In this document: one piece after another, positions 2,451-60,487 of the stretch
Layout of the letters: every line of letters begins with the position of its first letter
Position numbering within the stretch: position 1 is the stretch's first letter
NCBI GenBank assembly: GCA_964617735.1
Contig: CAZTXT010000001.1
Location: forward strand, 12,260-76,259
Length of the DNA: 64,000 nt
Direction: 5' to 3'
Origin: an uncultured Candidatus Saccharibacteria bacterium
Lineage (GTDB): Bacteria > Patescibacteriota > Minisyncoccia > Phycocordibacterales > DSPV01
Program-made: the position numbers and the translations under genes
Notes under the pieces: generated by a model
What the model saw: the letters and a program-made list of their open reading frames with translations, nothing else
What the model was told of the DNA's origin: nothing
The model's database searches: none

Positions 2451-3494
2451 ATGGCACTAGCAAAAAAAGAGAAGGTAGCACGTCCCCCGATACCGGAAAA
2501 ATCACTCGCAAATATCGAAGATACGTTAAAACAGATCAAAACGAAGTTCGGTGAAGAGGCGATCATGAAGCTCGGCGAGAAGCCGCGCGTGGACATCGAC
2601 GTCGTTCCGACCGGCTCCATTGGTCTCGACTCGGCACTGGGTGTCGGCGGAGTCCCTCGCGGACGCATCATAGAGATCTTCGGGCCGGAATCGAGCGGCA
2701 AGACGACCCTCGCCCTCCATATCGTCGCTGAAGCGCAGAAAAAGGGTGGCATTTGTGCCTATATCGACGCCGAGCATGCGATGGATCCCGAGTATGCAAA
2801 GAAGATTGGTGTGAAGATCGACGACCTCCTTATCTCCCAGCCCGACACCGGCGAGCAGTCGCTTGAGATCGTAGAATCACTCGTGCGATCGGGCAAGATC
2901 GACGTCATCGTCGTTGATTCCGTCGCGGCGCTCACACCCAAAGACGAGATCGAGGGCGATATGGGGCAACAACACGTCGGCAAGCAGGCACGACTCATGT
3001 CGCAAGCGCTTCGCAAACTGACCGCTATCGTCGCCAAATCAAAGACTATCGTCATTTTTATCAACCAAATCCGTATGCAAATCGGCGTGATGTTCGGCAA
3101 TCCCGAGACAACGCCAGGCGGCAAGGCACTTAAGTTTTACACATCTATCCGCATAGACGTGCGGCGAATCGCACAGATAAAGAAGGGGGACGAAGTCATG
3201 GGTGGTCGCGTGCGCGTCAAAATCGTCAAAAACAAAGTCGCAGCGCCATTCAAACAGACCGAGTTTGACCTCATGTACAACGAAGGTATATCGCGCGAAG
3301 GTGAAATGCTCGCGCTCGGCGAGAAGTTCGGCATCGTTAAGAAATCATCGGGCGGCAGTTACAGTTACGAACCCGAAGGGAAAGAGGAAGTGAAGCTCGG
3401 CCGCGGCTACGACGCCGCTCGGCAGTACTTACGGGAGAATAAAAAAGAGGCGAATGAGATTTTGAAAGAGATCAAGGCAAAATTAAAGGAATAG
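2451..3494 (+). CDS. recA: recombinase RecA
   Basis: Walker [15 protein letters not shown]1/L2 loop regions, full-length ~347 aa, strong family-level similarity. Confidence 0.97.
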
Positions 3495-3749
3495 ATGAAA
3501 TTCTTCAGGAAATCCCTAGGTTCGTTAATACTTATCGTTGGGACTCTTGCCGTTTTGGCATATCTAGCGATGTTTGTTGTTATTTTATTTGGCATGGGAT
3601 TTCGTCTCCCCGATCCAATATCCAATCTGCTTGATACAACATATCCGATAATCTTTTGGCTACTATTTATCGGAGGTGCACTCTTTATTGCGATTGGGCT
3701 AAGACGACGGAGGAAAGAGGCAAAAGATAAATCACTTCCAAGAAATTAG
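3495..3749 (+). CDS. small hypothetical membrane protein (AT-rich, probably horizontally acquired)
   Basis: Two predicted TM helices; local GC ~40% against ~55% background; ATG immediately follows the recA stop. Confidence 0.45.
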   Translation: MKFFRKSLGSLILIVGTLAVLAYLAMFVVILFGMGFRLPDPISNLLDTTYPIIFWLLFIGGALFIAIGLRRRRKEAKDKSLPRN

Positions 3750-3776
3750 GAGAGGACTAAAAGAAAATTAGCAGGG

Positions 3777-4376
3777 ATGAAAAACACGCTTATACAAGTA
3801 ATTCGGGTCATCTGCTTCATCCTTATATCTATAGGTTTATACCCCTTTATACAACTAGTCCTGTGGCTTTTTTCAGGTGACCTTGATGCTGGGATATTTG
3901 TGTTTGCGCTCGAGTCAATCCTACTCTTCATTCTCCCGATTCTTGTAGTTATATTTGTTCATCCTGTGCCGAAGATGGCGGAAGGCATCCCTCCGGCGGA
4001 GTTGTCCGCACAAATTGCCGCGGTCCGAAAGAAACAACGCAAATTCAGTTTGGCTCTGATTGCTGGCACGACTTGGCTTGGCCTTTTGTTTTTCTCTCTC
4101 ATGACTCTTTTCTTTACAGGACTCGCAGGATCAAACGGGCGTGATGTGTATATACTCCCCCTCGCTTTATTTCTGACAATGTTGTTTTTACCTCCCGTGG
4201 TCGGTTTTTATATACTCATCCGTAACATAATTAATAGACACAATAAAGCGGCTGAGCAAAAGACAGCGACTCAAGGTGTAGTAGCTGTTCCATGGGTATT
4301 GATATTAATTGGGGTTGCTATAACATTTTTGTTCATCTGGGTTGCTGTCTCGGCATTTTTAAATCCTCATCCATAA
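3777..4376 (+). CDS. hypothetical multi-pass membrane protein (AT-rich, probably horizontally acquired)
   Basis: 4-5 hydrophobic segments, low GC, preceded by RBS-like GGAGAGGA. Confidence 0.5.
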   Translation: MKNTLIQVIRVICFILISIGLYPFIQLVLWLFSGDLDAGIFVFALESILLFILPILVVIFVHPVPKMAEGIPPAELSAQIAAVRKKQRKFSLALIAGTTWLGLLFFSLMTLFFTGLAGSNGRDVYILPLALFLTMLFLPPVVGFYILIRNIINRHNKAAEQKTATQGVVAVPWVLILIGVAITFLFIWVAVSAFLNPHP

Positions 4377-4383
4377 GAGACCT

Positions 4384-4483
4384 GTTACGCGGCTACGACG
4401 CCGCACGGCAATATCTTCGAGAGAATAAAAAAGAGGCGAATGAGATTTTGAAAGAGATCAAAACGAAGTTGAAGGAAGCATAA
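4384..4483 (+). pseudogene. displaced duplicate of the recA 3' terminus (last ~33 codons), in frame to its own stop
   Basis: Nucleotide alignment to 3398..3494: 41 consecutive identical nt plus flanks differing mostly at synonymous positions; encodes [31 protein letters not shown] against RecA ...[30 protein letters not shown]. Confidence 0.7.
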
Positions 4484-4492
4484 AAGAAAAAC

Positions 4493-4525
4493 GGTGCAGC
4501 ATATGCTGCACCGTTTCGTTTTTCG
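4493..4525 (+). terminator. rho-independent terminator
   Basis: GGTGCAGCA-ta-TGCTGCACC hairpin followed by GTTTCGTTTTTCG. Confidence 0.7.
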
Positions 4526-4749
4526 CGTCACTCTGACGCAAGTTTTGCCGCCTGCGGCACTATCTCTTTGACTCCCCTGAGAAGACATTCCGAACAGATA
4601 GGCTTGGCGCCCAGATAAACGATCTTCTCCGGGGCCTCATGTTCGATCGGATGTCCCCATTGGGCACAAATAGGTATTTCATCCATATATACGTCTCCCT
4701 CTTAAGATATTATTGCATTGCCGCTATATTTTGGCTACAATGGCGACTT

Positions 4750-5316
4750 ATGGCAATTCTTCAATACAACGAAGCTACGGTTGGAACGTTCATCATTTTA
4801 GATGACCAACCGTATGAGGTCCTGGAATCTCGCGTCTTTCGCATGCAGCAAAGGAAGCCGGTCAACGCGACCAAACTGCGCAATCTGATCACCGGCAACG
4901 TCGTTCAGCATTCATTTGCCGTATCCGACAAAGTGGAAGAGGCTGAACTGGATAAGAAACAGGTGAAGTATCTCTACACGAACCGCGGCGAGTATTGGTT
5001 CTGCGAAGTCAACGACGCCTCGAAGCGCTTCAAGCTCGAACCCTCGCTCTTAGGTGACGGCATCCGCTTCATCAAAGCAAATTCACTCGTTGATGCGCTC
5101 GTTTTCGACGAAAAGATCATCGGCATCAAGCTCCCCATCAAAGTAGAGCTCAAGGTGGTCGAAGCGCCGCCCGGCGTCAAAGGCGATACCGCCAAAGGCG
5201 CAAGCAAGCAGATCAAACTCGAGACCGGCGCGACCATCAATGCCCCCCTTTTCATCAACGAAGGCGAAGTCATCCGCGTGAATACCGGCAGCGGTGAATA
5301 CGTAGAACGCGCCTAG
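4750..5316 (+). CDS. efp: elongation factor P
   Basis: MAILQYNE... start, KOW-like N domain and OB folds typical of EF-P; 188 aa. The upstream part of the computed ORF (4639-) is a non-protein-like extension. Confidence 0.9.
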   Translation: MAILQYNEATVGTFIILDDQPYEVLESRVFRMQQRKPVNATKLRNLITGNVVQHSFAVSDKVEEAELDKKQVKYLYTNRGEYWFCEVNDASKRFKLEPSLLGDGIRFIKANSLVDALVFDEKIIGIKLPIKVELKVVEAPPGVKGDTAKGASKQIKLETGATINAPLFINEGEVIRVNTGSGEYVERA

Positions 5317-5599: not shown

Positions 5600-6055
5600 T
5601 TAAAACGGTATGTCCTCCGCGTTTATCTCTTCCTGCGGATACTCTATCGCCTCCGGCATTTTCCCTTCTGCACCACTTGATGCCTCTTTCGTCCGGGGTG
5701 CTGCCGATCCAGTGCCCGCAGAACCACTGCCACGCGGACCGAACTGCACGCGATCTGCGACTATCTCGGTACGATACTTTTTCTGTCCATCCTGCCCGTC
5801 CCAGCTGCGGGTCTGCATCCTCCCTTCTACCAAAACCGAGCTGCCTTTTTTAAGATACTGCGCGGTGGTCTCCGCCTGACGGCCGAACACCACGACGTTA
5901 TGAAAATCAGCCTGCTCTTTTTTATTTCCGTCTTTATCTTTGTACACGCGGTTCGTCGCAACGCTGAAACTCGCCACTTGAATGCCCGAGGGAAGCGAGC
6001 GGAGCTCCGGATCGCGGGTCAAATTGCCGATGATAATAGCGCGGTTGAGATACAT
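5600..6055 (-). CDS. ssb: single-stranded DNA-binding protein
   Basis: OB fold, Gly/Ser-rich linker, acidic C-terminal tail ending DIPF; sits between rpsF and rpsR as in many bacteria. Confidence 0.95.
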   Translation of the reverse strand: MYLNRAIIIGNLTRDPELRSLPSGIQVASFSVATNRVYKDKDGNKKEQADFHNVVVFGRQAETTAQYLKKGSSVLVEGRMQTRSWDGQDGQKKYRTEIVADRVQFGPRGSGSAGTGSAAPRTKEASSGAEGKMPEAIEYPQEEINAEDIPF

Positions 6056-6596: not shown

Positions 6597-7412
6597 TTAA
6601 AGGCCGAAGAACTTCCCGGCATTCGCCGCCACATGTGTCCGTACATTCTCGGCTGGCATTCCCTTTACGGCAGCCAATCGTTCGACGACATAGGCCACGA
6701 AGCGCGGCTCATTGCGTTTGCCCCGGTGGGGCTCGGGCGCAACATAGGGCGCGTCGGTTTCGGACATGATCCGATCGAGTGGGAGGAACTTTATCACCTC
6801 GTCATAATTGTGCGTGAACGTGATAACTCCGGTAAAAGAAAAAGAACATCCTAACTCCAGAAATGGTTTTGCGTCCTCAAGTGTCCCTGCGAAGAAATGC
6901 AGATTGGCCGGAACGCGCGCGTTGGCTTTAAGCAGCGCGTAGGCATCCGCGTACGCATTCCGGATGTGCAACATCAGCGGCTTTTCTAGCTCATTGGCAA
7001 GCTGTATCTGCTGCAGAAATATTTCCTGCTGGCGCACCTTCGTATCAGGCTCAAGCCGGAAATAATCGAGGCCGCACTCTCCAATAGCGACCACTTTTTT
7101 ATCCGCCGCCATCGAACGATAGAGATCCATATCGAAAACTTCCTCACGGGAAGTGAATTCCGCACCGCCCTCACCCAATTCGTTGGTGTCGTGAAAAGAC
7201 TTAGCCGTATGGATCGGGTGGAGACCCACCGCGGCAAAAAGCCCGTCATAGGTGCGCGCGAGGGTGAGAGCAGTGTGAGAGGTAGCGGCTTGCGTACCGA
7301 CATTGATGGCCCAGACACCGGCTTCAAGCGTTCGGCGTATAACCCGCTCGCGGTCCGGCTCAAAAGCGGCAAAGTTGAGGTGCGTATGGACGTCTACATA
7401 GTCGGGTTTCAT
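6597..7412 (-). CDS. tatD: TatD-family metal-dependent hydrolase/DNase
   Basis: N-terminal VDVHTHL metal-binding motif, TIM-barrel hydrolase length 271 aa. Confidence 0.85.
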   Translation of the reverse strand: MKPDYVDVHTHLNFAAFEPDRERVIRRTLEAGVWAINVGTQAATSHTALTLARTYDGLFAAVGLHPIHTAKSFHDTNELGEGGAEFTSREEVFDMDLYRSMAADKKVVAIGECGLDYFRLEPDTKVRQQEIFLQQIQLANELEKPLMLHIRNAYADAYALLKANARVPANLHFFAGTLEDAKPFLELGCSFSFTGVITFTHNYDEVIKFLPLDRIMSETDAPYVAPEPHRGKRNEPRFVAYVVERLAAVKGMPAENVRTHVAANAGKFFGL

Positions 7413-7436: not shown

Positions 7437-8195
7437 CTACTTCTTCCCTCTGCCTCCCTTCTTCCACGGAGCATTGGCAAGGAACGGACCATAGAGATCC
7501 TCCTCAAGGGGAATATCGAGTGTCTTCGTCTTGTCGCGAGGGCGAAAGGGTTTATTCGTGAATCTCAAAAAAGAAACGTCTGTGATAAGCGCGAGCGGCG
7601 TGCATTCGCTCCCCTCGCCCATCACTACCACAGCAGCCGCAGCGAGCGAGTCTACATAATTCGCCTGAGAGAATTTGAACGTCCGTCCAAAGAGGTCCGG
7701 TTCATGACGATAATCATGCAAAGGCTCGAATCCAAAGCTCCCGAGCGAGATACCGACGACGCCGCGCCGCAGCGGTATCGTGTGCGAGTCGGTGATGAGC
7801 ACGCCACATTCTTTCACTTTGTAGGTCTTCCGCAGCCAGCGCTGGATATCGGCAGCGACACCATTCGAATCTTTTGGCCATAATATATAGTACCCGTTCG
7901 CGTTGGACTCATCTATTCCTGATGACGGAATGAAAATGTTTTCCTTAAGGGTATGCATGACATATCCTCCCGGCACAAAATCGCGGGAAAGATACGCATC
8001 GGCCTCTTCGATGATGAGCTCGTCTTTTTTGCGCGATATGATCGGTAAGCATCGCCCTTGCGCAATAGCGACGACTTTCGAAGTTACAACAAAAATGCTC
8101 TTTTCGGGAAGACGTTTCAGTGACGCGCGGATAACTGCCCGCAAGTCATCTTTCGGCGGCAAAAGGCGCCTGGTCTTTATAGGCTTTATCACCAT
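7437..8195 (-). CDS. CofE-like (F420-0:gamma-glutamyl ligase family) protein, possibly a folate/cofactor gamma-glutamyl ligase
   Basis: Family resemblance (VVTSKVVAIAQGR..., SSGIDESNANG...); no F420 pathway visible, so function is uncertain. Confidence 0.45.
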   Translation of the reverse strand: MVIKPIKTRRLLPPKDDLRAVIRASLKRLPEKSIFVVTSKVVAIAQGRCLPIISRKKDELIIEEADAYLSRDFVPGGYVMHTLKENIFIPSSGIDESNANGYYILWPKDSNGVAADIQRWLRKTYKVKECGVLITDSHTIPLRRGVVGISLGSFGFEPLHDYRHEPDLFGRTFKFSQANYVDSLAAAAVVVMGEGSECTPLALITDVSFLRFTNKPFRPRDKTKTLDIPLEEDLYGPFLANAPWKKGGRGKK

Positions 8196-8213: not shown

Positions 8214-9686
8214 CTACTCTTTGCGTGGGAAAAGCGGAGTGTCCGGAGATTTATGATTGGATAATAAATCCTTTATTTTCTTTGCTGTCACTGGCATAAA
8301 AGGTAAGAGAAGGTCAGAAATCAATTTTAGATCGTAGAGAAGAAATTGAATTTCAGTCTTTGCTTGGGAATAATTAATTTTAATCTTTTTGAAGGGTTGA
8401 TTTGATTGTATTGAACGGTCAGCCCAAGAAATAACATCCCAAATCGAACTTATTGCCTCTGAGAGATTGCATATTTCCATTGCTTTCCTATATTTCTTAA
8501 CGAAAACATCATTCTCGTTTCTCGTAAGATTCTGATCAGAAAGAATATTATAATTACTTGCCATCTTCATGACGCGACTGACGAGATTCCCGATACCATT
8601 CGCTAAGTTCGCGTTGTACCATTCCTTCAATTTCTCTTTTGAAACTGCGGTGTCTTCGAAGGGATGGAACTCGCGAAGCACGAAGTAGCGCAACGCTTCA
8701 GTTCCATATTCTTTCACGATATCGAGCGGATCTACGACATTCCCCAGCGCTTTGGACATTTTCATCCCGCCGTCGCCGAGAACAAAACCGTCGACGATGA
8801 TCTGGTAGGTAGGAGACAAATCTGCAGCCATAAGCATCGCCTGCCACATCAGTCCCTGGAATCTCGTATTATCCTTGCCACAGTACTGCGTCGGCGTACC
8901 CTCCACCCAAAATCTCTTGAAATCCCCTTTTTCGTCCGGCCAGCCAAGCGTCGAGACATAGTTGACCAGCGCATCGAACCAGACATACATCACCTGCTCG
9001 GAATCGTCGGGGACTGGAATACCCCACGGCAATTTCGATTTAAGGCGTGAGATGCTGAAATCCTTGAGCCCGCGCTTGATGAACTCGCGCAATTCGTTGA
9101 GACGATAGGAAGGGACGACAAAATCAGGATGAGCGTCATAAAACGCGAGGAGTTTGTCCCCGAAGACGCTCAATTTGAAGAAATAATTCTCTTCGTTGAT
9201 GATTTCGGGGACGCGGTCATGGATCGGACATTTCCCATTGACGAGCTCGCTGTCGGTCTTCTCTTCCTCGCAACCGATGCAGTATTTCGCTTGGTAATTC
9301 TTTTTGTAAACATATCCGTTCTGGTCGCACCGCCGCCAAAATTCCTGTGCGGCTTTTATATGATGGGCATCGGTCGTGCGAATGTAGTGAGCGTCTTCTG
9401 ACACACCGAGTTTCTGAAGCGTCTTTCGGTAGAGCGTGGCATATTCATCGACGAATTGCTGCACCTCCTTTCCTGCTTTTTGCGCCGCCTCGAATATCTT
9501 CATGCCATGCTCGTCGGTTCCGGTGTTGAAAAAAACTTCAAAACCAAGCGACTTCCGGTAGCGCGCAACGGCATCCGCGCGAATGATCTCCGTCGCATGC
9601 CCCAAATGCAGCGGTGCATTCACATATGGAAGCGTGGTCGTGATATAGAACGAGCGCGAAGCGCCTGTCTCACCTTTTTTCTTCAT
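8214..9686 (-). CDS. metG: methionine--tRNA ligase
   Basis: HLGH (HIGH) motif, KMSKALGNVVDP (KMSKS), zinc knuckle CIGCEE...CPIHD, anticodon-binding C-terminal domain. Confidence 0.95.
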   Translation of the reverse strand: MKKKGETGASRSFYITTTLPYVNAPLHLGHATEIIRADAVARYRKSLGFEVFFNTGTDEHGMKIFEAAQKAGKEVQQFVDEYATLYRKTLQKLGVSEDAHYIRTTDAHHIKAAQEFWRRCDQNGYVYKKNYQAKYCIGCEEEKTDSELVNGKCPIHDRVPEIINEENYFFKLSVFGDKLLAFYDAHPDFVVPSYRLNELREFIKRGLKDFSISRLKSKLPWGIPVPDDSEQVMYVWFDALVNYVSTLGWPDEKGDFKRFWVEGTPTQYCGKDNTRFQGLMWQAMLMAADLSPTYQIIVDGFVLGDGGMKMSKALGNVVDPLDIVKEYGTEALRYFVLREFHPFEDTAVSKEKLKEWYNANLANGIGNLVSRVMKMASNYNILSDQNLTRNENDVFVKKYRKAMEICNLSEAISSIWDVISWADRSIQSNQPFKKIKINYSQAKTEIQFLLYDLKLISDLLLPFMPVTAKKIKDLLSNHKSPDTPLFPRKE

Positions 9687-18533: not shown

Positions 18534-19016
18534 TTAGCGAGTGACAGAAATATCTGCGGAAGCTGGAGGCTTCTGCGTACTAGGTGCAAAGATAGTGACA
18601 CGACCCGCTGAATCTACTCCGGCAGTGTATCCCGTAGTATATGTTGCGTTGCATGTAGCAACAGAGCCACCTGTAACAGTTGGGTCTACAGGGAGAGCAG
18701 GGAGATAAGTAGTGACGAGCGCTGGGCAGAGGTCAACCTTTGCGGTACCACTGAGACCTGTTATCGTACATGGGGTTGCCACAGGACATGCGGCAACTGT
18801 GAGGCCAGCTGGCAAATCTCCTTTGTGGTCAGAAGAATACTGTCCAATTGCATTAAGAATTGCGTTTACGTTTGCCTCGCGCTGACTGTTATTCGCCTGC
18901 GCAAACTGACGAGCGGGATTGATCGCAACCAATACCACTGCCGCCAGGATGGCAATGATTCCGATGACAACGAGAATTTCAATGAGTGTAAAACCTTTAT
19001 TTTTATTTTTCTTCAT
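18534..19016 (-). CDS. type IV major pilin (prepilin-type N-terminal cleavage/methylation domain)
   Basis: KGFTLIEILVVIGIIAILAAVV class III signal (G-1, E+5), small Cys-containing C-terminal globular domain; own promoter and terminator. Confidence 0.85.
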   Translation of the reverse strand: MKKNKNKGFTLIEILVVIGIIAILAAVVLVAINPARQFAQANNSQREANVNAILNAIGQYSSDHKGDLPAGLTVAACPVATPCTITGLSGTAKVDLCPALVTTYLPALPVDPTVTGGSVATCNATYTTGYTAGVDSAGRVTIFAPSTQKPPASADISVTR

Positions 19017-19127
19017 AATTTCATTATTAAACCTTTAAAACAACGATATTCGACCTCGTTTATGTGCCTATTTAAGACAAGTGCTGTTTTACCATGAAGC
19101 GCGACAAATGGCAATTGACAAAGATAT

Positions 19128-19544
19128 CTAGGGTGTTGGAGTTTCCTTCCAGCTTATGATGTTTCCGTTAGTGGTACCGACAACCACTTCAAGATTGGTA
19201 GTCGCTGCGCTCGTGCTTGCCGTAGTTTTTATCAAACTATTCCCTGCCGAAGGAGTATTCGGAGTGATGGAATAAATCCCGCACGTCGCTGATCCTATGT
19301 GAACGATCTTCCAGTTAGTAGACGAGATCGTAAGAGTCGGATCATTTACCACTGCCACAATAGCAGACTGCAGACATCCTTGGGCAAGCGCATCGCTTGC
19401 ATCCTTTCTCTCTAAATCCAAGAACATGAATCGCTGGGCTAAACCGCGATTAGCCAAGGAAAGAACTGCGGCCATGAGCACGATGCCCAAGATGATCACC
19501 GAGATAAGCGCGACAAACCCGCCTTGTTCATTTTTAGTAGGCAT
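19128..19544 (-). CDS. pilus-associated membrane-anchored protein (pseudopilin-like, non-canonical signal)
   Basis: N-terminal GGFVALISVIILGIVLMAAV hydrophobic helix without Glu+5; positioned within the pilin gene run. Confidence 0.5.
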   Translation of the reverse strand: MPTKNEQGGFVALISVIILGIVLMAAVLSLANRGLAQRFMFLDLERKDASDALAQGCLQSAIVAVVNDPTLTISSTNWKIVHIGSATCGIYSITPNTPSAGNSLIKTTASTSAATTNLEVVVGTTNGNIISWKETPTP

Positions 19545-20034
19545 AGATATAGCGTGTGTTGGGGCCGAAGTGTACTCCGTTCGCATCGAACTCAACGGAG
19601 AGTGAGCGCGGAACTCCTCCAGCAGGTGAAGTATGACGAACACTAAAATTCGAAAACGTGACTCGGGAAGCTGTTAGCGGGAGCCATGTTATACCGCCAT
19701 CTTTTGAGACTTCAATACTATTTTGAGTTAAAACACCCTGACGTAATGAGATTTTGGGGCCGGTAGTGCAATCTGGCCCTGCAGTACGAACGATAAGAGT
19801 GTTTCCAGAAAAACCTGCGCTAGGTGTACAAATTTCCACAAGGGAAGAAAGCGCCCATGCGACCTTGCGCGAGACAAAAGCCGATTCCCCATCTGTCGTT
19901 GTGCGCAGTGATAATTTATCGGCACCAGTTATCAGCGGATACGAAGTAACGATCACACCGGTGAGGATGATACCGAACAAAGCGATATAGACTAATGTTT
20001 CGATCAGGGTAAAACCCTTAATAGAAGACCTCAT
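19534..20034 (-). CDS. minor type IV pilin
   Basis: KGFTLIETLVYIALFGIIL prepilin motif. Confidence 0.8.
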   Translation of the reverse strand: MRSSIKGFTLIETLVYIALFGIILTGVIVTSYPLITGADKLSLRTTTDGESAFVSRKVAWALSSLVEICTPSAGFSGNTLIVRTAGPDCTTGPKISLRQGVLTQNSIEVSKDGGITWLPLTASRVTFSNFSVRHTSPAGGVPRSLSVEFDANGVHFGPNTRYIYAY

Positions 20035-20039
20035 TTTAT

Positions 20040-22586
20040 TTAGTTCTCGATAATCTTGAAGATGTTGCTTGGAGGAGGAACTGGTACGGTTGTTCCACTA
20101 ATTGTATTACTATTCCAAGATTTATGACCTACCCTTGTCGTTGTATACCTGAAGATTACAACGCATGCGTATGGAGCAACTGCGTTTGGCGTACAGGAAC
20201 TTGAAACTGGAATTGCTGTAACTGAAATAGTTGACGGTGATGGATTTGGGGTTGGCATGAGAGTAACAGGCTGAGGTGATGCTCCTGCAGCCATAGTTAC
20301 TGTTACACTTAGATCAAATGGTGCCCCACCATTACTTATGGCGACATCAGGTAAATTATTAGGAAGTGTATAAGAGAATGGTACCGGATCAGCAACAGTC
20401 ATACTAAAGGTAGTAGTCTTTGCCGGGGATGCACCATTTACTGTTATCGTTCGTGTGCCGAGAGTAGCTCCCGCCGACGCAGTATACGTAAAGGTGACTG
20501 TACATGTGTATGGGGCAACAGTAGTTGGCGTGCACGACTCAGAAGCTGGGACCGAAGTGAATGCAACTCCTGGTGCTAGATTTGACGGAGTCAATGTAAC
20601 TAACTGCGGAGAACCTAACGCCGCCGTCTGTGTAACAGTTACAATGTTTGTGAACGATCCTACACCTCGGTAAACAGTACCAGAACTCGGAGCGGGTGAA
20701 TTAAGTGAATAATCAAACGGAGCCGGATTTACGACTAAATTAAACTGGGTCGTCTGTGCTCCTCCAGAAACCGTGATCGTATAATTTCCCACCGGCGTAG
20801 TCGGATAGGTGGTCGCGATAGTCAGCTGACTTGAGCAGGTCGGCGTGCATGGATTATTGGTAAACGTTGCTGATGCGCCCGCAGGAAGTCCGGATGCGTT
20901 GAGCACAACGTCGGATGGGGCGCCGAAGGTAAGCGTGCGCGTGATTGTATTACTACCAGACGAGCCTTGTGTTACGGCGATATTTCCGCCATTTGAGAGC
21001 GTGTAGCCAAATCCGGCAGAATACAGAACATAGAATGCAACGTTTCCTTGATTGGCATGGGTTGCATAAACGAGATCCTTAGATGAATCGATCCCGACGG
21101 TTGTAAAAGGTTCTGTATATACTCCATAGGGAGCGGTAGAAGGTCTGACGATAGAGCTCGGGTCAGAGACGTTCAGAACACGGAGCGCGTTGCTCGTCGC
21201 CAAGAACGCAAATCCTCCGGCAACCGCAACATCATTGATATCTTCGTTATAGGGCACAATCGTGCTGTTGGCGTGGCAGGTACCGCAGACGGTAGGAGAG
21301 CGCGGATCTGATATATCAACAACATAAAAGTTCGGGCTCGCACCGCTCCCCAAACCTACATACGCATAATTACCCAACACTGAAAGTGCTAGTCCGTACT
21401 GATTCCCTGCAGGATTGAACGTACCGACCGTTGGCACAGGAGCTGCTACAACGGCAGGCGAAGTTACGTCGATAATCTCAACTTCAGGAGAACCAGAACT
21501 ACTCGAGATCGCAAGATACGCGAGCGTCCGAGTGCCGAGCCCAGGAACGATTTGCTCCCGCACAACGATCTTATAGATATTGTGATTGATATCGTAGGTA
21601 CCGAGCAATGTAGGACCCAACGGAGAACCGGAACCGGATGCATTGTGTACATCGTAAACGAGGAGTTCGGGATTGCTGACATTGTAGCCGATTCCGACGT
21701 ATAATCTTCCATTGTAGAAATAAAGAGTTCCTCCGCCATTACCCGGAGTAGAAGGGGGGAAACTGATCACCGTAGGAGACGGATGCGGAATGACCGTCAT
21801 CGCATTCGTCATGTCGATTATCTGAAGTTGATTTGAGGCTGCATCATTGCCTACATAGTTGTAGGCGTAGGTAATACCACTCGCGGCATTTCGAGCAACC
21901 TCGATCGCACTGTATTGCATCTCTCCTTCATTCTCTCGATCGCCGTCCACGATATCATTGGCGGGTGTAATCGGGGGATAGGAAGGCAAATTTCTTCCAT
22001 CTTCCGCGATAATGTCAGGCTTTCCAACCGCGTTGCCGCCGCTCGCTATATAGAGAATGCTGTTCTGCAGATCAAAATCATTGGTATCCACGTTACCGAG
22101 ATGACTGCGACTGACTTGGGTCAACAGTTCCGGATCATGCCAATCATTCCCTGGCGTCGGAGGAAAGGGGTTGCAACCGCCACCCATGGCCTTTGCAACA
22201 GCGATGTTCGCCACGAGCGTAGAGAAATTGAAGTACTGCGCGCGATTTTTTTCTGATGTCCAATTCGAATTATCGCCAACCAATTTCATGCACGGCGAAA
22301 CATCACCGATAGTGGTGTTCATGCTATAGATATCAGAAGTTGTGGCTTGCACAGTACCCGCCTGATTCCACAGAACCGCGGTCGCGACCGTTGAGGAACC
22401 GAGATCGCTCTCTATCCGGTACATACCGTGATTGGTGAGGTTCGAATCCAAGCTTGAGCTCTGGCCACCGAACGAGACCAGCGTAGCTCCGGTGATAAAG
22501 AAAATAGCTAGAGCAAATGCGATGAGCAACTCCAATGTGGCAATTCCCCGCTGTTTGTGATGTTTCTGAACCATAAATATCACCAT
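20040..22586 (-). CDS. giant pilin-like protein (prepilin-type N-terminus plus beta-propeller/LVIVD-like repeats and C-terminal Ig-like Thr-rich domains); candidate pilus tip adhesin
   Basis: N-terminal RGIATLELLIAFALAIF; repeated motifs YVVDISDP / LRVLNVSDP / VEIIDVTSP resembling LVIVD beta-propeller blades; 848 aa. Confidence 0.7.
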   Translation of the reverse strand: MVIFMVQKHHKQRGIATLELLIAFALAIFFITGATLVSFGGQSSSLDSNLTNHGMYRIESDLGSSTVATAVLWNQAGTVQATTSDIYSMNTTIGDVSPCMKLVGDNSNWTSEKNRAQYFNFSTLVANIAVAKAMGGGCNPFPPTPGNDWHDPELLTQVSRSHLGNVDTNDFDLQNSILYIASGGNAVGKPDIIAEDGRNLPSYPPITPANDIVDGDRENEGEMQYSAIEVARNAASGITYAYNYVGNDAASNQLQIIDMTNAMTVIPHPSPTVISFPPSTPGNGGGTLYFYNGRLYVGIGYNVSNPELLVYDVHNASGSGSPLGPTLLGTYDINHNIYKIVVREQIVPGLGTRTLAYLAISSSSGSPEVEIIDVTSPAVVAAPVPTVGTFNPAGNQYGLALSVLGNYAYVGLGSGASPNFYVVDISDPRSPTVCGTCHANSTIVPYNEDINDVAVAGGFAFLATSNALRVLNVSDPSSIVRPSTAPYGVYTEPFTTVGIDSSKDLVYATHANQGNVAFYVLYSAGFGYTLSNGGNIAVTQGSSGSNTITRTLTFGAPSDVVLNASGLPAGASATFTNNPCTPTCSSQLTIATTYPTTPVGNYTITVSGGAQTTQFNLVVNPAPFDYSLNSPAPSSGTVYRGVGSFTNIVTVTQTAALGSPQLVTLTPSNLAPGVAFTSVPASESCTPTTVAPYTCTVTFTYTASAGATLGTRTITVNGASPAKTTTFSMTVADPVPFSYTLPNNLPDVAISNGGAPFDLSVTVTMAAGASPQPVTLMPTPNPSPSTISVTAIPVSSSCTPNAVAPYACVVIFRYTTTRVGHKSWNSNTISGTTVPVPPPSNIFKIIEN

Positions 22587-23050
22587 TCAATACGCCCCTC
22601 GCTATTAATGTCAATAGTGTAGGATTGCCCGCTTTGTGTGAGTGTTACGGTGCCCGCACCAGAATAGGCACTCCCGGACAATCGATCAAATACAAGTGTT
22701 GTCGGGCTTGGAGATACCGTGATAGCCGAATTCCGCGGAGTACTCCTTTGATTGACACCCGGGTAAGTGTCCCCTTCGAACGCGATAATGTTGGATGAGT
22801 CGATGTAGACACCCTGCCTCATCTGATCGACGTTGGCGAGTGCGCGAGCACGAGCACCGAGCAGCATTTGCACGATTAAGTCACGCTCACTAGAAACCGT
22901 TGAGCGATTTATAGAATTTAAACTAAGAATAGCAGTGGCACCTGCAAGTAAGATAAAGACTCCTAGTACTACCAATACTTCAATGAGCGTGAAGCCTTTA
23001 TTAAGCCAAAGGGTGTGGCTTTTAGCGTGAAAGGTGTTGGGTAATTTCAT
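22580..23050 (-). CDS. minor type IV pilin (GspH/FimT-like)
   Basis: KGFTLIEVLVVLGVFILLAG prepilin motif. Confidence 0.8.
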   Translation of the reverse strand: MKLPNTFHAKSHTLWLNKGFTLIEVLVVLGVFILLAGATAILSLNSINRSTVSSERDLIVQMLLGARARALANVDQMRQGVYIDSSNIIAFEGDTYPGVNQRSTPRNSAITVSPSPTTLVFDRLSGSAYSGAGTVTLTQSGQSYTIDINSEGRIEW

Positions 23051-24329
23051 AGATCGGGGTGATAACAGAAACGGCGACGAATCCGACGATAAGGCCCATG
23101 AAGATCATCAGCACCGGCTCGATGGAGCTCGAGAGATTCTTCACGGCATCATCCACTTCGGCCTCATAGTGCTCCGAGAGATACATGAGCGAGTCGGAGA
23201 GCGTGCCCGATGCCTCGCCGATCGAGATCATGTGGCAGACAATGTCGGGAAAGAGCTTAGGCTCGGTCTCAAGATACGTCGAGATGCGCTCGCCTTTGAC
23301 GATGCGCTCGCGCAGCTCGATGCACTCTTCCTTATACACCGGGTTCGCGGTCGAATCGCTCGTTACCGTCGCCGCTTCGACGACGTTGAAACCGCTGCGC
23401 AACAGCAAGCTAAGCGTGCGGGAGAAATTCGCCATGTTGTAATCCTGCACGAGCCTGCCGAGAAGTGGCACGCGCAGTATGGTCCGCGCCACAAAGTAGC
23501 GGAAGGTTTTGTTGGCCCGGAGCAAAAAGAAGAACCCTGCAGCGGCAATGATAAGGCCGATCAAGGTATAGATGCCCCAATGGCGCAAGAAATTGCTGAT
23601 GAACAAAAGCGTCACCGTGGTAAAAGGCAAGCTGACATTGAGGCTTGCGAAGATCGGCATGACCTTCGGGAATATATAGACCGTGAGCAGGGTTGAGATG
23701 CCGATGGTTGCGAGCGTTATGAACGCGGGATAGACCAACGCGCCGATGACTTTGCGCCGGAGTGCATAGCGCTTTTGCAGTTCCTCGGAGAGATACACGA
23801 GATTGTTGCTCAAACTGCCGCTCATCTCGCCGACGCGAATGACGTTTATCGCGAAATCGCCGAAGCTCTCCTTAAAGCGCGCGAGTCCCGAAGAGAGCGG
23901 GCGTCCATTCGACACATCGTCGATGACGACTTCCAAAATCTTCTTCTTCGACTTTGCCTTCGTCTGTTTTTGCAAGAGGTGAAGACTTTCGAGTATAGGA
24001 ATGCCGGAGCGGATCAAAAAGGCGAGGCGCTTGGCGAAATGGACCAGGTCTTTCGTCGAGTAGCTTCCGAACACAAAAAGGCGGGAACGGCGCTTTTTCG
24101 TTTCTTTAGTTCCATACCCGATCGCGGGTGTTTGAGGCCCCGCCGGCCTATCTTTTTTCGAGAACGGCAGCTTCATGCGCTTGGGTGCATCCTTTTTCAC
24201 GTCGGACTTCTTGAGCGCCGGCGGCGTGACCGGAGTCGCTTTCTGTATCTGCGGCAAGAGCGGCGCTTGGGTTTCCCGCTCCGGCGTCGTCTTTATCGAA
24301 ATCTTTATTCTATGCTCCGAATCACTCAT
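23022..24329 (-). CDS. pilC: type IV pilus assembly platform protein PilC (GspF family) with Lys/Pro-rich N-terminal extension
   Basis: Two T2SSF repeats and three TM segments in the typical arrangement; ~90-aa basic N-terminal extension. Confidence 0.85.
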   Translation of the reverse strand: MSDSEHRIKISIKTTPERETQAPLLPQIQKATPVTPPALKKSDVKKDAPKRMKLPFSKKDRPAGPQTPAIGYGTKETKKRRSRLFVFGSYSTKDLVHFAKRLAFLIRSGIPILESLHLLQKQTKAKSKKKILEVVIDDVSNGRPLSSGLARFKESFGDFAINVIRVGEMSGSLSNNLVYLSEELQKRYALRRKVIGALVYPAFITLATIGISTLLTVYIFPKVMPIFASLNVSLPFTTVTLLFISNFLRHWGIYTLIGLIIAAAGFFFLLRANKTFRYFVARTILRVPLLGRLVQDYNMANFSRTLSLLLRSGFNVVEAATVTSDSTANPVYKEECIELRERIVKGERISTYLETEPKLFPDIVCHMISIGEASGTLSDSLMYLSEHYEAEVDDAVKNLSSSIEPVLMIFMGLIVGFVAVSVITPIYEITQHLSR

Positions 24330-25569
24330 GGGTTACGCGCAAAATCTCTTGGAAGGTCGTGTCTCCCGCGACAGCTTTACGCACACCGTCTTCGATCATT
24401 GGCGTCATGCCATTTTTGATTGCGATCTGCTTGATCTCGCTCGCCGATGCTTTGCGCAACATCGCCTCGCGAACCTCACTGTCAACCACGAGTACTTCTC
24501 CGATCACCGTGCGGCCGCGATACCCCGTATTGCCGCAGGACTCGCACCCTCTGCCTTGATAGATCTTGTCGATACTCTCAAGAAGATGCGCCGGCAGCGA
24601 ACCCGAGAGGCTCTGCCGCTCCGCGGCGGAGAGCACGCGCTCTTCTTTGCAATGTTGGCAGATCTTGCGGACCAAGCGCTGACCGATCGCGATGTTCACC
24701 GTCGAAGCGACGAGAAACGGCTCGATGCGCATATCCAGAAGGCGCGGCAAGGTCGTCGCGGCATCATTGGTGTGTATGGTAGAGAGCAGAAGGTGGCCTG
24801 TGAGTGCGGTGTTAACTGAGATCGAAGCGGTTTCGACATCGCGGATCTCGCCAACCATTATGATGTTGGGGTCCTGGCGGAGTATCGAGCGGAGGCCGTC
24901 TGCGAAGGTGAGCCCCGTGCGCGGATTGACCTGTATCTGCTCAATGCCTTCAACGGCATACTCGATGGGGTCTTCGATGGTAACGATCGAAGTGTCGCGC
25001 GTGTTGAGCAATTTGATAAGCGTGTAGAGTGTCGTGGTCTTGCCCGAGCCAGTCGGACCCGTCGAGAGGATCATCCCATGCGGACGTTTTGCCGCGCGGA
25101 GTATTTTTTCCTGATCTTGTTTTGAAAAGCCGATCGCTTCGAGCGTGAATTGCGCTGACTTATCGGAGAGGAGACGGAGCACCGCGTTCTCGCCGTAGTA
25201 GGTTGGGATTATGGAAATGCGAATGTCCACCGGATCACCGTCATAGCTGGTACGGAAGCGGCCGTCCTGTGCCGCTTGGTGTTCATCGGTGCGCAAACCA
25301 GCAAGCACTTTGATGCGCGAGATGACCGGCGCGTGCAGTTCTTTCGGGAGCGTGTAGGAATCGAGCAATACGCCGTCCACGCGGATGCGGACATGTACCG
25401 ACTGCGCATGGGGGTCTATATGGATATCGGACGCACGGGCCTGATGGGCATGCTCGATAAGGGATTGCACGAGGTTGATAACGGATGCCTCGGCGCCCCG
25501 CGCGATTTCATGCTGGACCGTTGTTTTGCTCGGATTTGTGGTCGGATTCATAAGATATCTTGCAAACAA
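24322..25569 (-). CDS. pilB: type IV pilus assembly ATPase, GspE/PilB family (short form lacking N1 domain)
   Basis: Walker A LSTGPTGSGKTTTLYT, Asp box, His box, C-terminal tetracysteine CQHC...CESCGNTGYRGR. Confidence 0.85.
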   Translation of the reverse strand: MFARYLMNPTTNPSKTTVQHEIARGAEASVINLVQSLIEHAHQARASDIHIDPHAQSVHVRIRVDGVLLDSYTLPKELHAPVISRIKVLAGLRTDEHQAAQDGRFRTSYDGDPVDIRISIIPTYYGENAVLRLLSDKSAQFTLEAIGFSKQDQEKILRAAKRPHGMILSTGPTGSGKTTTLYTLIKLLNTRDTSIVTIEDPIEYAVEGIEQIQVNPRTGLTFADGLRSILRQDPNIIMVGEIRDVETASISVNTALTGHLLLSTIHTNDAATTLPRLLDMRIEPFLVASTVNIAIGQRLVRKICQHCKEERVLSAAERQSLSGSLPAHLLESIDKIYQGRGCESCGNTGYRGRTVIGEVLVVDSEVREAMLRKASASEIKQIAIKNGMTPMIEDGVRKAVAGDTTFQEILRVTHE

Positions 25570-39938: not shown

Positions 39939-40484
39939 TTATATCTTTTTAACCTGAAGGTAATCGAGCTCCACGGGGGTTTCGCGGCCGAACATCGAAA
40001 CCAAGACCTTGACCTTACCGCGTTCTTCATCGACTTCCCCCACCTTCCCCTCAAAATCCTTGAACGGACCATCCGCGATGATAACCGCGTCATCAACCGC
40101 AAGATCAATCGTATGCTTGACCGTATCGGAACTCATCCGAGAGAACAATTCATCGACTTCCTTTTTATTCAAGGGCACCGGATAGATGCCCGAGCCGACG
40201 AATCCGGTCACACGCGGCGTGTTGCGCACTACATACCACGAATCATCGGTAACGACCATGTCGACAAGAATGTAGCCTGGATATACTTTCTCCTGCTCCT
40301 CGACGCGCTTGTTGCCTTTGACTTTTATCTTTTTCTCGGTCGGGACGACCACGCTGAAGATCTTATCCTCCATGCCGAGCGATTCGATGCGCTGCTTGAG
40401 GTTGCGCGCCACGGCATTTTCGTACCCCGCGTAGGTATGAATAGCATACCAATTGCGCACTTGTTCTATTTTTTGTTTGGACAT
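39939..40484 (-). CDS. nusG: transcription termination/antitermination factor NusG
   Basis: NGN domain WYAIHTYAGYEN, C-terminal KOW; 181 aa. Confidence 0.95.
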   Translation of the reverse strand: MSKQKIEQVRNWYAIHTYAGYENAVARNLKQRIESLGMEDKIFSVVVPTEKKIKVKGNKRVEEQEKVYPGYILVDMVVTDDSWYVVRNTPRVTGFVGSGIYPVPLNKKEVDELFSRMSSDTVKHTIDLAVDDAVIIADGPFKDFEGKVGEVDEERGKVKVLVSMFGRETPVELDYLQVKKI

Positions 40485-40496
40485 TGCCTTAGAGAA

Positions 40497-40676
40497 TTAA
40501 AAAAGCCGCGAGAGACCGATCCTGAAGAGATAATCGAAAAGGCCAAGGAAAGCGGCGAACGTGATGGAGATCCCGACAACCGCTGCGGTATAGGCAAGGG
40601 CTTGGCGCCGCGTCGGCCAATTGACGTGTTTCATCTCGACTTTCGTCTCTTTGAGATAATCGTTAACCTTTGCCAT
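40497..40676 (-). CDS. secE: preprotein translocase subunit SecE (59 aa; absent from the supplied ORF track, below its size cut-off)
   Basis: Manual translation: MAKVNDYLKETKVEMKHVNWPTRRQALAYTAAVVGISITFAAFLGLFDYLFRIGLSRLF; single TM, conserved position upstream of nusG. Confidence 0.7.
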   Translation of the reverse strand: MAKVNDYLKETKVEMKHVNWPTRRQALAYTAAVVGISITFAAFLGLFDYLFRIGLSRLF

Positions 40677-40827
40677 ACTGTCGTGTTCCTTAATTTCCTA
40701 TAAAAAACCGCCCACGCGGGCAAGTAGGGACAGCGTATACCTGATGGGCTCAAAAGTCAAATTGATCTTCTAAGGGGAAACCGTTCTGATGCTCACGAGC
40801 GGTTTCCCCTACCAATGAATCCACAAG

Positions 40828-57027: not shown

Positions 57028-60000
57028 CTAGAAAATCTTCTTGAGGAAATTACCGATGCGCTGCCAGAAACCAGTCTTGGGTTGACCCACCGAATTGATG
57101 ACGGCGGCCGAAGAAGATTGCTTCTTGATCGAACCGACATCGGGAGTAGGAGTCTCTTTAGGCGCTGAAGTACCGGCAGGCGCGGGCGTCACTGACGGAT
57201 GAACAGTCGTGTTCTGAGTGGGAAATGCCGAGTCGCCCATCGCTTTTATGCGCGCGATCTCATCGAGCTGCTGCTGCGTCAGCGGAAATTCTTTCGTGAA
57301 CTTGCAATAGGACTCGTTGATCTTCTTACGCGTCGTGTAGTAGACGTAACCGGTCGAACGCGTTGCACCCCACGGAGCGAGAATATCTTTGGCATAGCGT
57401 AGCTGGAAGGCGTGCACGGCTTTATAGGAGGCGGCATCATAGATGCCCGTGTCGGAAACATCGGTGAATCCTTCCAGGTCACGCAGGAAGCGCTGGAGAC
57501 GAGATACCTGCGTCGAATCGTTCTTCCGATCGATGTGGATGTAGCTGGTCAGGTACTGATCACAGTCTTCAGCAGAAACACCGAGTACCTGTCCGGTCGG
57601 TCCGGTCGAAGCGCCGAGCACTTGACCCACGGGTCCTCCGCTGCCTCCGCCGCCGATCGGCCCATTACCCGGAGGAGGGTTGCCGCCACCGCCTCCACCA
57701 CCCCCGCCCGGAGGCGTCGGGGTGTTAACGGTTACCGTTCGAGTAGTCGTAGCACCTAAAGCACCCGAATCAGTCACTGAATAGGTCCGGGTGTAAGAAC
57801 CTGCAGTGTTCGTATCTACTGTACCCGTCATAACGATGCTTGCGGTAAGATCGCCATCTTCAACATCCGACGCGGTCGCACCCGGATCGGTGAACGTGTC
57901 GCCGACCGTAAGGCTCATCGGGTTCGCTCCATTAAGGGTTATCGTCGGCGGATTATTCGTTGGACCCCCGCCTGAAGCAGTGTCGTCGTTGGTGATCGTG
58001 CATGACTTCACATCGCCTGCAGAAAGGGTGATGTTCCCGCTTGAATCGCAATCACCGCCGATGGTCGCCGTGTAGTTGGGATCAGCAGTCTCCGAAACGG
58101 TATGTGCCCCGACGGTGGTCGTCGTAGTCGCGCCCGAAACAACCGGGCTTCCGTCGATGAAGAGCGGAAAATCAGAGACTTGCTTGGTACCACCGTTGTC
58201 ATTGACGACAATCTTCACGACGGTAAGTGTCGGTACAAACGCGGCGCAATCGGGATCCGCAAGGTCGGTCAGATCGTCACCGTCATTGTCGATGCCGTCG
58301 GTACAGAGCGGCAAGGTATTTTCAACCGGTTGAGCGACCACATGCACCGTCCTTTTAACCTGGACCGCAGGGTTGCCGGCGGCATCACTGACATCATAGG
58401 TAACCCTGTAGGTGCCGAGCGTAGAGGTGTCGACAGGATTTGACGTTACGATGCTTGCGGTCAGATCACCATCGACGATGTCCTGTGCCGTCGCACCCGC
58501 ATCGGTATAAATCGTATTTTGAGTTACATCGAGAGTCGCCGCTCCGGTTAACGTAATGATGGGAGGCGTCGTATCCTCTACGAGAACCGTGGCCGTGTCA
58601 GAGCCAGTATTGCCGGATGAGTCGGCTACAGAACAACTGATCGTACTGGTGCTCAGCGGGAAGGTATCGCCGGTGGCGAAATTGCAAGAAACGGAGCCTG
58701 AGAGATCACCGTCAACGATGTCAGTCGCAGTTACGGTAAAGCTCGCCGGGGTGCCCGAGGGACCGGTTGCTTCAAGGGTTTGAGTATCCGGACTGATCTC
58801 CACGTCGGGTGCTGTCGTGTCCTCTACAGTCACCGAGAATGCGACGCCAGCGCCGACATTACCCGAAGAGTCCGTGGCCGTACACGCGACTTGCGTCGTG
58901 CCGAGCGGGAAGGTACTTCCCGAGACCGGTGTGCAGGAAGTAGGTATGGTGCCATCTGCGTCATCCGTTGCGGTTACCGCAGGATACGTTACGGTGGCGC
59001 CTGCAGGACCGGTCGCCTCGGTAACGATATTAGTTTGCGTATTGATAACGGGAGCATTTACATCAGAAACCGTAACCGTTCGCGTCTTCTCGACGGCAGG
59101 ATTACCGGCGGCATCGATGGCGTTGTAGGTGATCACATATACGCCCGGGACGCTGGTATTGATCGTATCGCCCCCCGTCGTCACCGAAACGGAACCATCG
59201 ACTATATCAACGGCAGTAGCACCGGCGTCGACATAGGAAGCGCCGACCGTAAGATTCACGGAGCTTGACCCGTTGAGCGTTATGACCGGAGGCGTCGTGT
59301 CGACAACGGTCACCGTTGCGCTATCAGAACCCGTATTCCCCGCCGCGTCCGTCGCTGAACAGGTGACGGTTGCGGTTCCGAGAGCGAACGTAGCGCCTGA
59401 CGCGATAGTACAAGTTGCAGATCCGGAGATATCTCCATCAACGGTATCTAGTGCGCTAACGGTGTAGTTCCCAACCGCGCCCGAGGGGCTGGTTGCTTCA
59501 AGGGTTTGAGTGCCGGGAGTTATGGTTACGACCGGAGGAGTGGTATCAGGAGTAGCAGCATCATCATTGGTGACTATACAGCTGTAATTCTCGCCAGCTA
59601 CTACAGTCACTGAGCCATTGGTAGTGGTCGCATTATTACCACTGCAGATAACACTGGTCTGGTTATACCCCGGATGGGCATCTTCCGTAACGCTATAAGT
59701 ACCAGGGTTCAGAAGAAAATCCTGACCATTTTCTGAACCGGAGAATGACTGACTTGCGAAGTGGAGTGTGAAAGCTGAAGAGGTCGCGGTTCCGCCATTA
59801 TCATTCACGACATGCTTCTTTACTGTTACTACCCCCTGCGTCGGTGCAGCAACACACTGGTTCACGCTGAACAGATGGCTGTCATTACCCGTTGGTTGAC
59901 CATGGTAGAGGTAAATGATAATGATATTTCCCCCTTGAGTCGGAGTGAACGTGCCAAGAGTAACATTATGGAAAGGAGTATCGGCTCCAGAAGCGACAGC

Positions 60001-60249: not shown

Positions 60250-60430
60250 AAATCTTTATATAAACTCCTTTAGTAAATCGTATGATATCTTGACGTCAAA
60301 AAAATTTTGTTTTGCGAATTGTCCATTCGCTTAGTTAGGGGTATCCTACGCAGCACTTACGAAATGTCAATGACTTTCGCATCGATGCTATACACCTCTT
60401 TTCCCCACTCTGTCCACAGTAGCAAAAACA

Positions 60431-60464
60431 CAAAACAGCCCCGCTTTCGCGGGGCTGTTTTCTT
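60431..60464 (-). terminator. rho-independent terminator downstream of the giant repeat-protein gene
   Basis: CAGCCCCGC-tttc-GCGGGGCTG flanked by A/T runs. Confidence 0.65.
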
Positions 60465-60487
60465 GACACCGAGCTGCCTCTTCTTAG

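Follow-up and report, generated by a model that had tools for sequence, protein, structure and literature searches.

How does the end of a housekeeping gene come to stand twice in a bacterial genome, the second time without the gene to which it belongs, and what do the genes lying between the two copies tell about their own arrival? The question is raised by the recA locus in a stretch of 64,000 nucleotides (nt), here called the window, of an uncultured Candidatus Saccharibacteria bacterium (GenBank assembly GCA_964617735.1, contig CAZTXT010000001.1, positions 12,260 to 76,259 of the forward strand). Unless another locus is named, all coordinates below are positions within this window. The intact recA gene (2451..3494, + strand), which encodes 347 amino acids (aa) and matches Pfam RecA (3.5e-137) and RecA_C, is followed by an AT-rich insert of 893 nt (3495..4387, +) and then by a second copy of the recA tail. 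A first-pass annotation had taken this arrangement for a site-specific insertion by a mobile element, possibly a decayed one. We consider instead, with moderate confidence, that the locus results from a recombinational displacement of the 3' end of recA.

The duplicated recA tail and its insert

The functional tail (copy 1; 3402..3494, +), detected by comparing the window with itself, corresponds to the last 31 codons of recA and closes with a TAG stop codon (3492-3494), and the orphan tail (copy 2; 4388..4483, +), delimited by aligning the copies, closes with TAA (4481-4483). Positions 3402-3491 and 4388-4477 form a gapless 90-nt direct repeat with 79/90 identical nucleotides (88%), which bears out the earlier observation that the recA tail recurs after two low-GC membrane-protein genes. 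It is the sole duplicated gene end in the entire 64 kb. Copy 2 begins abruptly inside recA at codon R319 (4387/4388), is not preceded by a recA body and does not share the reading frame of mp199. As had been proposed, one of the tails is thus a displaced orphan, lacking a recA body of its own and followed by what is presumably the original recA terminator.

The copies differ in nine codons and eight of these differences are synonymous (copy 1/copy 2: GCT/GCA, CAG/CAA, TAC/TAT, TTA/CTT, CGG/CGA, AAG/AAA, AAA/AAG and TTA/TTG); the codon pairs listed in the first-pass annotation were all correct. The single replacement is GCA/ACG, changing alanine to threonine (A to T), and the copies end as KAKLKE-TAG and KTKLKEA-TAA, copy 2 running on for one more codon before its stop, as already described. 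When 11 random substitutions were simulated, not one of 200,000 trials (0/200,000; P<5e-6) gave at most one amino-acid change. Both copies therefore diverged while selection acted on them as coding sequence, and they did so in different lineages, as had been supposed, each tail evolving as part of a working recA gene.

The differences fall in two patches flanking a 41-nt core (3435..3475, +; partner 4421-4461), which is identical in both copies. It is the longest identical run between them, with P ~0.008-0.017 if the differences were placed randomly. Synonymous sites at the core codons vary freely in six close relatives, where 28-33/41 positions are identical, and the identity of the core therefore does not reflect constraint at the nucleotide level. 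We regard the core as a candidate crossover or gene-conversion tract. An exact search for it in viral contigs gave no match, and Rfam and tRNA scans around the locus found nothing.

The AT-rich two-gene insertion noted earlier at the 3' end of recA is real and compositionally foreign. Its GC content is 40-43% overall compared with 52-53% in recA and the window, and 0.39-0.47 along it compared with ~0.52-0.55 in the flanks, and GC content at third codon positions (GC3) is 0.33 and 0.42 in its two genes, mp84 and mp199, compared with 0.56-0.73 in most host genes of the window. Exceptions among the latter are the pilin cluster at ~18.5-23 kb (0.39-0.47, one open reading frame (ORF) 0.53) and the ORF at 40113-40703 (0.53). 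Both inserted ORFs are strongly hydrophobic. The product of mp84 (3495..3749, +) has 84 aa with ~2 predicted transmembrane segments and a basic C-terminal tail, and that of mp199 (3777..4376, +) has 199 aa with ~5 predicted transmembrane segments and no known relatives. Indeed, when mp199 was searched against 5.8 billion clustered proteins, and by a full HMMER run against 1.84 billion representative proteins, it retrieved nothing but itself. Neither protein gave a Pfam match above the curated cutoff, sub-threshold matches being typified by Phage_holin_3_6 for mp84 (21 bits against a cutoff of 28.4), and neither matched anything in PADLOC or PHROGs. The insert DNA had no match in phage and plasmid collections, nor did mp199 in viral contigs. 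Weak tblastn matches of mp84 to the transmembrane N-terminus of FtsK were rejected as compositional rather than homologous, and mp84 showed no homology to the small proteins encoded after recA in close relatives. Pfam, PADLOC and PHROGs revealed no recombinase in the insert or in the DNA on either side of it; the insert consists of the two membrane-protein ORFs only, in agreement with the earlier statement that it holds no integrase.

The ATG of mp84 adjoins the recA stop codon (TAGATG), and the last recA codons, AAG GAA, provide a Shine-Dalgarno-like AAGGA ahead of it. The shared bidirectional terminator reported in the first-pass annotation was found at 4489..4516. It is an intrinsic terminator with a stem of 12-13 bp and T-runs on both strands; its hairpin (-26.3 kcal/mol, z = -5.1) begins 6 nt past the stop codon of copy 2, and presumably it is the original terminator of recA. 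No comparable terminator occurs in 3494-4489, where there are only two weak 5-pair terminator-like matches (4337-4355). For this reason recA, mp84, mp199 and the orphan tail probably form one transcript that would end at the old terminator.

The recA-efp junction in related genomes

The bacterium is one of the Paceibacteria, within the candidate phyla radiation, and its recA locus was compared with ~165 related loci, the closest RecA proteins being those of Candidatus Taylorbacteria (90% identity). In the window, recA is preceded by ftsK (7-2091; ORF list and Pfam) and by a gene for a small Ig-like protein of the Glucodextran_B family (2093-2449; ORF list and Pfam), and the conserved right-hand neighbour is efp (4750..5316, +), identified by its Pfam EFP domains and by synteny in relatives. 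The order ftsK-Ig-recA-efp is conserved across the compared loci. The first-pass annotation had raised the possibility that in relatives recA is followed directly by the terminator and efp; the order of the two genes stood, and their adjacency did not, the gap between them ranging from 2 to 3,809 bp with varied content. This content is mostly lineage-specific and, outside the recurrent families named below, most of the ORFs are singletons. Each of the closest relatives has a different gene after recA: four of them carry unrelated plus-strand genes of 74-94 aa, and a fifth an unrelated minus-strand ORF of 148 aa. In L104 and L107 the flanks are 90% (recA side) and 96% (efp side) identical and the DNA in the gap is entirely unrelated. 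Since gene order is conserved, gap size and content are variable and no cargo is shared between near-identical flanks, the recA-efp junction is a class-wide insertion hotspot. Recurrent gap families, assigned by eye from sequence motifs, include an apparent pair of extracytoplasmic function (ECF) sigma and anti-sigma factors (17 loci) and a transposase resembling the REP-associated tyrosine transposases (RAYT), near palindromes resembling repetitive extragenic palindromic (REP) sequences (5 loci). No integrase was recognised in the gaps of the ~165 loci, in a survey made largely by eye in which ORFs of at least 260 aa were inspected.

Several other features of these loci were observed. The gaps of L083, L128 (6999-8173), L149 (6991-7780), L153 and L156 contain an ORF of ~215-228 aa with motifs, seen by eye, like those of REP-associated tyrosine transposases, and in L128 and L149 this ORF is flanked by near-identical palindromes of 30-32 nt (AAAACTTGTCGACCTGCCAGGTCGACAAGTTT), which also occur elsewhere in L149. 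The gap of L104 has a perfect 55-nt direct repeat (7659-7713 and 8747-8801) around ~1 kb of DNA. In L162, a 48-nt repeat (7968-8015 and 8621-8668; 98% identical) lies upstream of rpsR and ssb on the minus strand and takes in the start codon and leader. Direct repeats stand immediately on either side of recA in L002 (90 nt, 5860-5949 / 7065-7154, 92% identical) and in L034 and L109 (32 nt, 5853-5884 / 7070-7101, 88% identical). A motif with GGTCCTCGGGTCG recurs in intergenic repeats of L002, L130 and L134, and a variant of it is present in L051. Small proteins of 75-84 aa are encoded directly after recA in L163 (6031-6258), L166 (6056-6298) and the window (mp84, 3495-3749). Each of the three has a charged tail at its C-terminus and ~2 transmembrane segments, with no detectable sequence similarity to the other two, and they could be either analogues in function or relatives that evolve very fast. 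Outside the insert, in the stretch from the terminator to efp, lies a 52-aa ORF (4528..4686, -) convergent on the terminator, taken from the ORF list and of uncertain gene status. It has host-like GC content and a C-x4-H ... C-x2-C pattern, with no matches in Pfam, PADLOC or PHROGs and no tblastn matches in relatives.

When the recA tail of each locus was compared with its own flanks, one further true duplication was found among the loci searched, in the lineage of L004, L170 and L171, so that the first-pass suggestion to look for other duplicated recA tails proved fruitful. In L004 (JAOAUE010000005.1, 5756-6347) recA ends with ATGAAAGAAGTCGTAGCAGATAGCGCGAGTGAGTAA, an AT-rich gene for a protein of 174 aa starts at an overlapping TAATG, and right after this gene the exact 36-nt recA tail recurs, followed by efp. 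The same architecture is present in two independent contigs of the European Nucleotide Archive (ENA; L170 1-918 and L171 1-507). The 174-aa cargo was found only in its own clade, and it matched nothing in Pfam, PADLOC or PHROGs beyond sub-threshold level. The L004 repeat comprises the last 11 codons and the stop, the core in the window lies 6-19 codons before the stop, and the two sequences are unrelated. Because the L004 repeat sits elsewhere in the recA tail, there is no common attachment (att) core, and the two cases have a common architecture and different recombination sites.

Divergence between L004 and L170 amounts to 0.6% in the cargo and to 5-8% in the tail copies, and both copies of the repeat bear the same two substitutions (GTC GTA to GTG GTG). 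Since the same substitutions are carried by both copies between strains, the copies recombine, and the repeats of this clade evolve in concert. In L171 the second copy has undergone a K to T replacement and lost its stop codon, and it is thus non-functional and behaves as a decaying orphan; the cargo of L171 has an 81-nt in-frame deletion. Other candidates were dismissed as chance matches, namely a weak second tail match in L038, located inside efp, and second tail matches in L022 and L026. Neither for the window nor for L004 did a sister genome with an empty site come to light.

The structure could be suspected of being an assembly artefact or a strain chimera, in which the recA alleles of two co-existing strains were stitched together via the core. 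The contig is indeed metagenome-assembled, and the 41-nt repeat is longer than short k-mer sizes. However, the junction mp199-TAA-gagacctgtta-CGCGGCTAC, with the truncated recA tail right after mp199, has no k-mer in common with an undisrupted recA locus and turned up independently in the Logan assembly of SRR12313480, in a contig (L161) of 1,005 bp reported from 2 samples. L161 runs from the core through the 3' arm of copy 1 and the two genes to the copy 2 5' arm and the core again. Logan assemblies consist of k=31 unitigs, and the length of L161 equals 986 - 41 + 2x30, as expected of such a unitig broken in the 41-nt repeat. The analogous architecture of the L004 clade was found in three independent assemblies, and one of the ENA contigs spans the region from the recA tail to efp. 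The inner junctions are thus not peculiar to one assembly, and the outer linkage across the core comes from the deposited contig of 674,686 bp alone. The earlier concern about an artefact is answered to that extent, and we consider a chimera very unlikely.

Origin of the displaced tail

To explain the data, a foreign cargo and two recA alleles from related lineages are needed, and an integrase is not. We favour an insertion by homologous exchange in recA, combined either with illegitimate joining or with an intermediate in the form of a small circle. The DNA that entered the genome would have come from a closely related lineage and carried a recA end with the two AT-rich membrane-protein genes directly after it. 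On the left side it would have recombined homologously within recA. On the right side, the end of the fragment may have undergone illegitimate joining at codon R319 (4387/4388) of the resident recA, by homology-facilitated illegitimate recombination; alternatively, a circle of ~986 bp comprising tail and cargo could have been integrated by a single crossover in the 41-nt core. In either case recA would end in the tail of one allele, the cargo would come next, and the other tail, orphaned and untranslated, would remain downstream together with the original terminator. This would call for no dedicated integrase. Later on, the tail copies can still recombine, through gene conversion or with the cassette popping out; that the copies keep recombining is shown by the concerted evolution of the L004 clade and by the identity of the core. 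In their codon usage the two arms of copy 2 are in total ~20-fold more host-like than those of copy 1, which is weak evidence; on this ground the linear-fragment route, in which copy 1 is wholly donor-derived, is mildly favoured.

The DNA may plausibly have entered by natural transformation, since the window contains type IV pilus genes, including a PilB/PilT-family ATPase of the T2SSE family (24322-25569), a PilC-like T2SSF protein (23022-24329) and pilins, and natural competence has been documented in Patescibacteria (PMC10633639).

A number of observations weigh against this account. The likelihood ratio for codon usage is driven mainly by two rare TTA codons in copy 1, and polarising the 11 variable sites with six relatives gave 4-5 against 4-6 matches. 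A sliding-window analysis of identity along recA revealed no breakpoint, the relatives used being distant (75-85% nucleotide identity). No donor genome was found in protein, phage, plasmid or viral collections and no empty site either, the closest RecA being only 90% identical, and the transfer direction and crossover point are therefore putative. The Logan contig fits an integrated copy and a 986-bp circle alike. The exactly identical repeats of L004 could reflect an insertion mechanism that itself generates duplications, and a perfect core with diverged homologous arms is how integrase attL and attR look. Finally, the search for a recombinase covered 64 kb of a ~675-kb contig, and an integrase could act in trans.

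Integrative elements are known to insert in the 3' ends of protein-coding genes, as do the cis-mobilisable relatives of ICESt1 and ICESt3 at fda of Streptococcus thermophilus. The locus might accordingly be read as the remnant of such an element, or as a minimal one of cis-mobilisable type, with an attP that mimics the recA tail and an integrase that was lost or acts in trans; the repeats would then be attL and attR sharing the 41-nt core, left by an integrase-borne island that targeted the recA 3' end. Likenesses are easily found: direct repeats flank the insert, a replacement 3' end is supplied that restores the target gene with the recA frame intact, the core is perfect between diverged arms, the composition of the insert is foreign, the Logan contig running from core to core equally fits the circle, and some derivatives of these elements lack an integrase. 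Yet no recombinase was found in the insert or flanks, none was recognised in the gaps of the ~165 relatives, and no intact element was seen at the recA-efp site in any of them. In addition, the position of the repeat is not conserved between the two cases, the L004 lineage using another part of the tail, neither cargo was found elsewhere, be it in phage, plasmid and viral collections or in another genomic context, and inserts of 0.5-0.9 kb, below 1 kb in the window, are far smaller than known islands. Without any supporting feature among the tests for a recombinase and a common core, a site-specific origin is the less likely one and we hold it to be unlikely. The mobile element of the first-pass annotation found no support in this comparison, in which the copies of the L004 clade also proved to be concerted and the hotspot to hold unrelated cargo between flanks that are 90-96% identical.

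Other histories were considered as well. The insertion might have duplicated an identical tail, as in L004, with the synonymous differences added later by allelic replacement from a relative, imported either into recA or into the downstream region, the middle having stayed identical or been re-homogenised. The fully identical (100%) L004 repeats, the rapid allelic turnover at recA indicated by tails differing by 5-8% between L004 and L170 next to a cargo differing by 0.6%, and the patchiness of the copy differences in the window are all in keeping with it. Two events would be needed, however, and the import patches would be very short, of 16 and ~10 nt; moreover, an allele without the cassette has no homology past the stop codon, yet the differences reach and include the stop position. 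This sequence of events appears quite improbable to us. A direct repeat at a gene 3' end with a second copy downstream also recalls an in-situ tandem duplication followed by neutral divergence, or the template and variable repeats of a diversity-generating retroelement. Neutral divergence would be expected to be ~70% non-synonymous, whereas eight of the nine changed codons are synonymous. The differences are not adenine-specific (adenine stands in copy 2 at 5/11 sites and in copy 1 at 4/11), and there is no reverse transcriptase gene nearby. The synonymous pattern and the adenine counts effectively refute both ideas, to which we give next to no credence.

Displacement of the recA 3' end has its closest analogue in the C-terminal displacement of rhs loci, where tips carried on core fragments are proposed to insert by way of a circular intermediate (PMC2935791, Jackson et al. 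2009). In a related case, the 3' ends of type VI secretion system (T6SS) effector genes are displaced by homology-facilitated illegitimate recombination (PMC5361080, Kirchberger et al. 2017), a process described in natural transformation of Acinetobacter, S. pneumoniae and P. stutzeri (cited in PMC5361080 and PMC3240628). As in the rhs, CDI (contact-dependent growth inhibition) and T6SS systems, incoming DNA would here have brought a piece of a conserved gene with a new 3' end and new downstream genes, and the old 3' end would have been moved downstream as an orphan homologous to the gene, with no integrase involved. Unlike in those systems, a housekeeping gene, recA, is concerned, with one orphan and no array, and the peptides encoded by the tails are essentially the same, differing in A/T and in one additional residue, with neither a new toxin domain nor an immunity gene. 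The gain is thus a downstream orphan cargo and not a new C-terminus. With homology-facilitated illegitimate recombination the locus would have in common the one-sided homologous anchor in a conserved gene, the illegitimate joining of the other end, the capture of foreign genes without mobile-element enzymes and a host with type IV pilus genes. The difference is that the process is deduced here from a natural genome, and the microhomology at 4387/4388 is putative. Classical experimental cases of illegitimate recombination usually delete recipient DNA and leave no homologous duplicate.

One may go further and picture the recA-efp junction of Paceibacteria as a dedicated site for acquiring cassettes without an integrase. 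Small circles lacking a promoter, of 986 bp in the window and 556 bp in L004, would each combine one or two orphan genes with a 36-97-nt copy of the recA tail; a RecA-mediated single crossover with the recA 3' end would insert and release them, and the cargo would ride on the recA promoter and the Shine-Dalgarno-like last recA codons. Integron cassettes are similar in that they, too, are small, comprise one or two genes and no promoter, are inserted immediately after an expressed region and are served by an upstream promoter; they differ in that no IntI or attI is seen here and the repeat is plain recA coding sequence. We think this extension doubtful. If true, the junction would be a homology-addressed analogue of the integron, coupling new small membrane proteins to recA expression.

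Other features of the window and significance

Elsewhere in the window, the 3' end of metG (8214-8636, minus strand) shows a fall in GC3 from ~0.6 through 0.50 to 0.28 over about the last 130 codons, a sharp switch which suggests that a foreign AT-rich allele took the place of the 3' part of this gene; downstream of metG no orphan tail can be seen. The type IV pilus cluster (18534-25569) includes prepilin-like genes at 18534-19016 and 22580-23050. Its pilin end, including a protein of 848 aa with LVIVD repeats (20040-22586), has a GC3 of 0.39-0.47, and its ATPase and platform genes one of 0.68-0.73. On the minus strand, 57028-63745 holds two ORFs of 1,073 and 1,085 aa with internal modules of ~330-680 nt (repeat families D1-D8), probably repetitive surface proteins.

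Bacteria of the Candidate phyla radiation have tiny genomes with few recognisable mobile elements, and how lineage-specific genes come into them is poorly understood. The recA locus is the preserved scar of one such acquisition, accompanied by a second independent case and a class-wide hypervariable slot. It suggests that conserved housekeeping genes may act as homology anchors by which orphan genes are captured without an integrase. Genes captured in this manner would travel as passengers on the transcript of recA, with immediate expression. The signature of such events, an AT-rich insert with an orphan gene tail behind it, is simple and can be searched for genome-wide, and as models among the Patescibacteria are now transformable, the prediction is testable.

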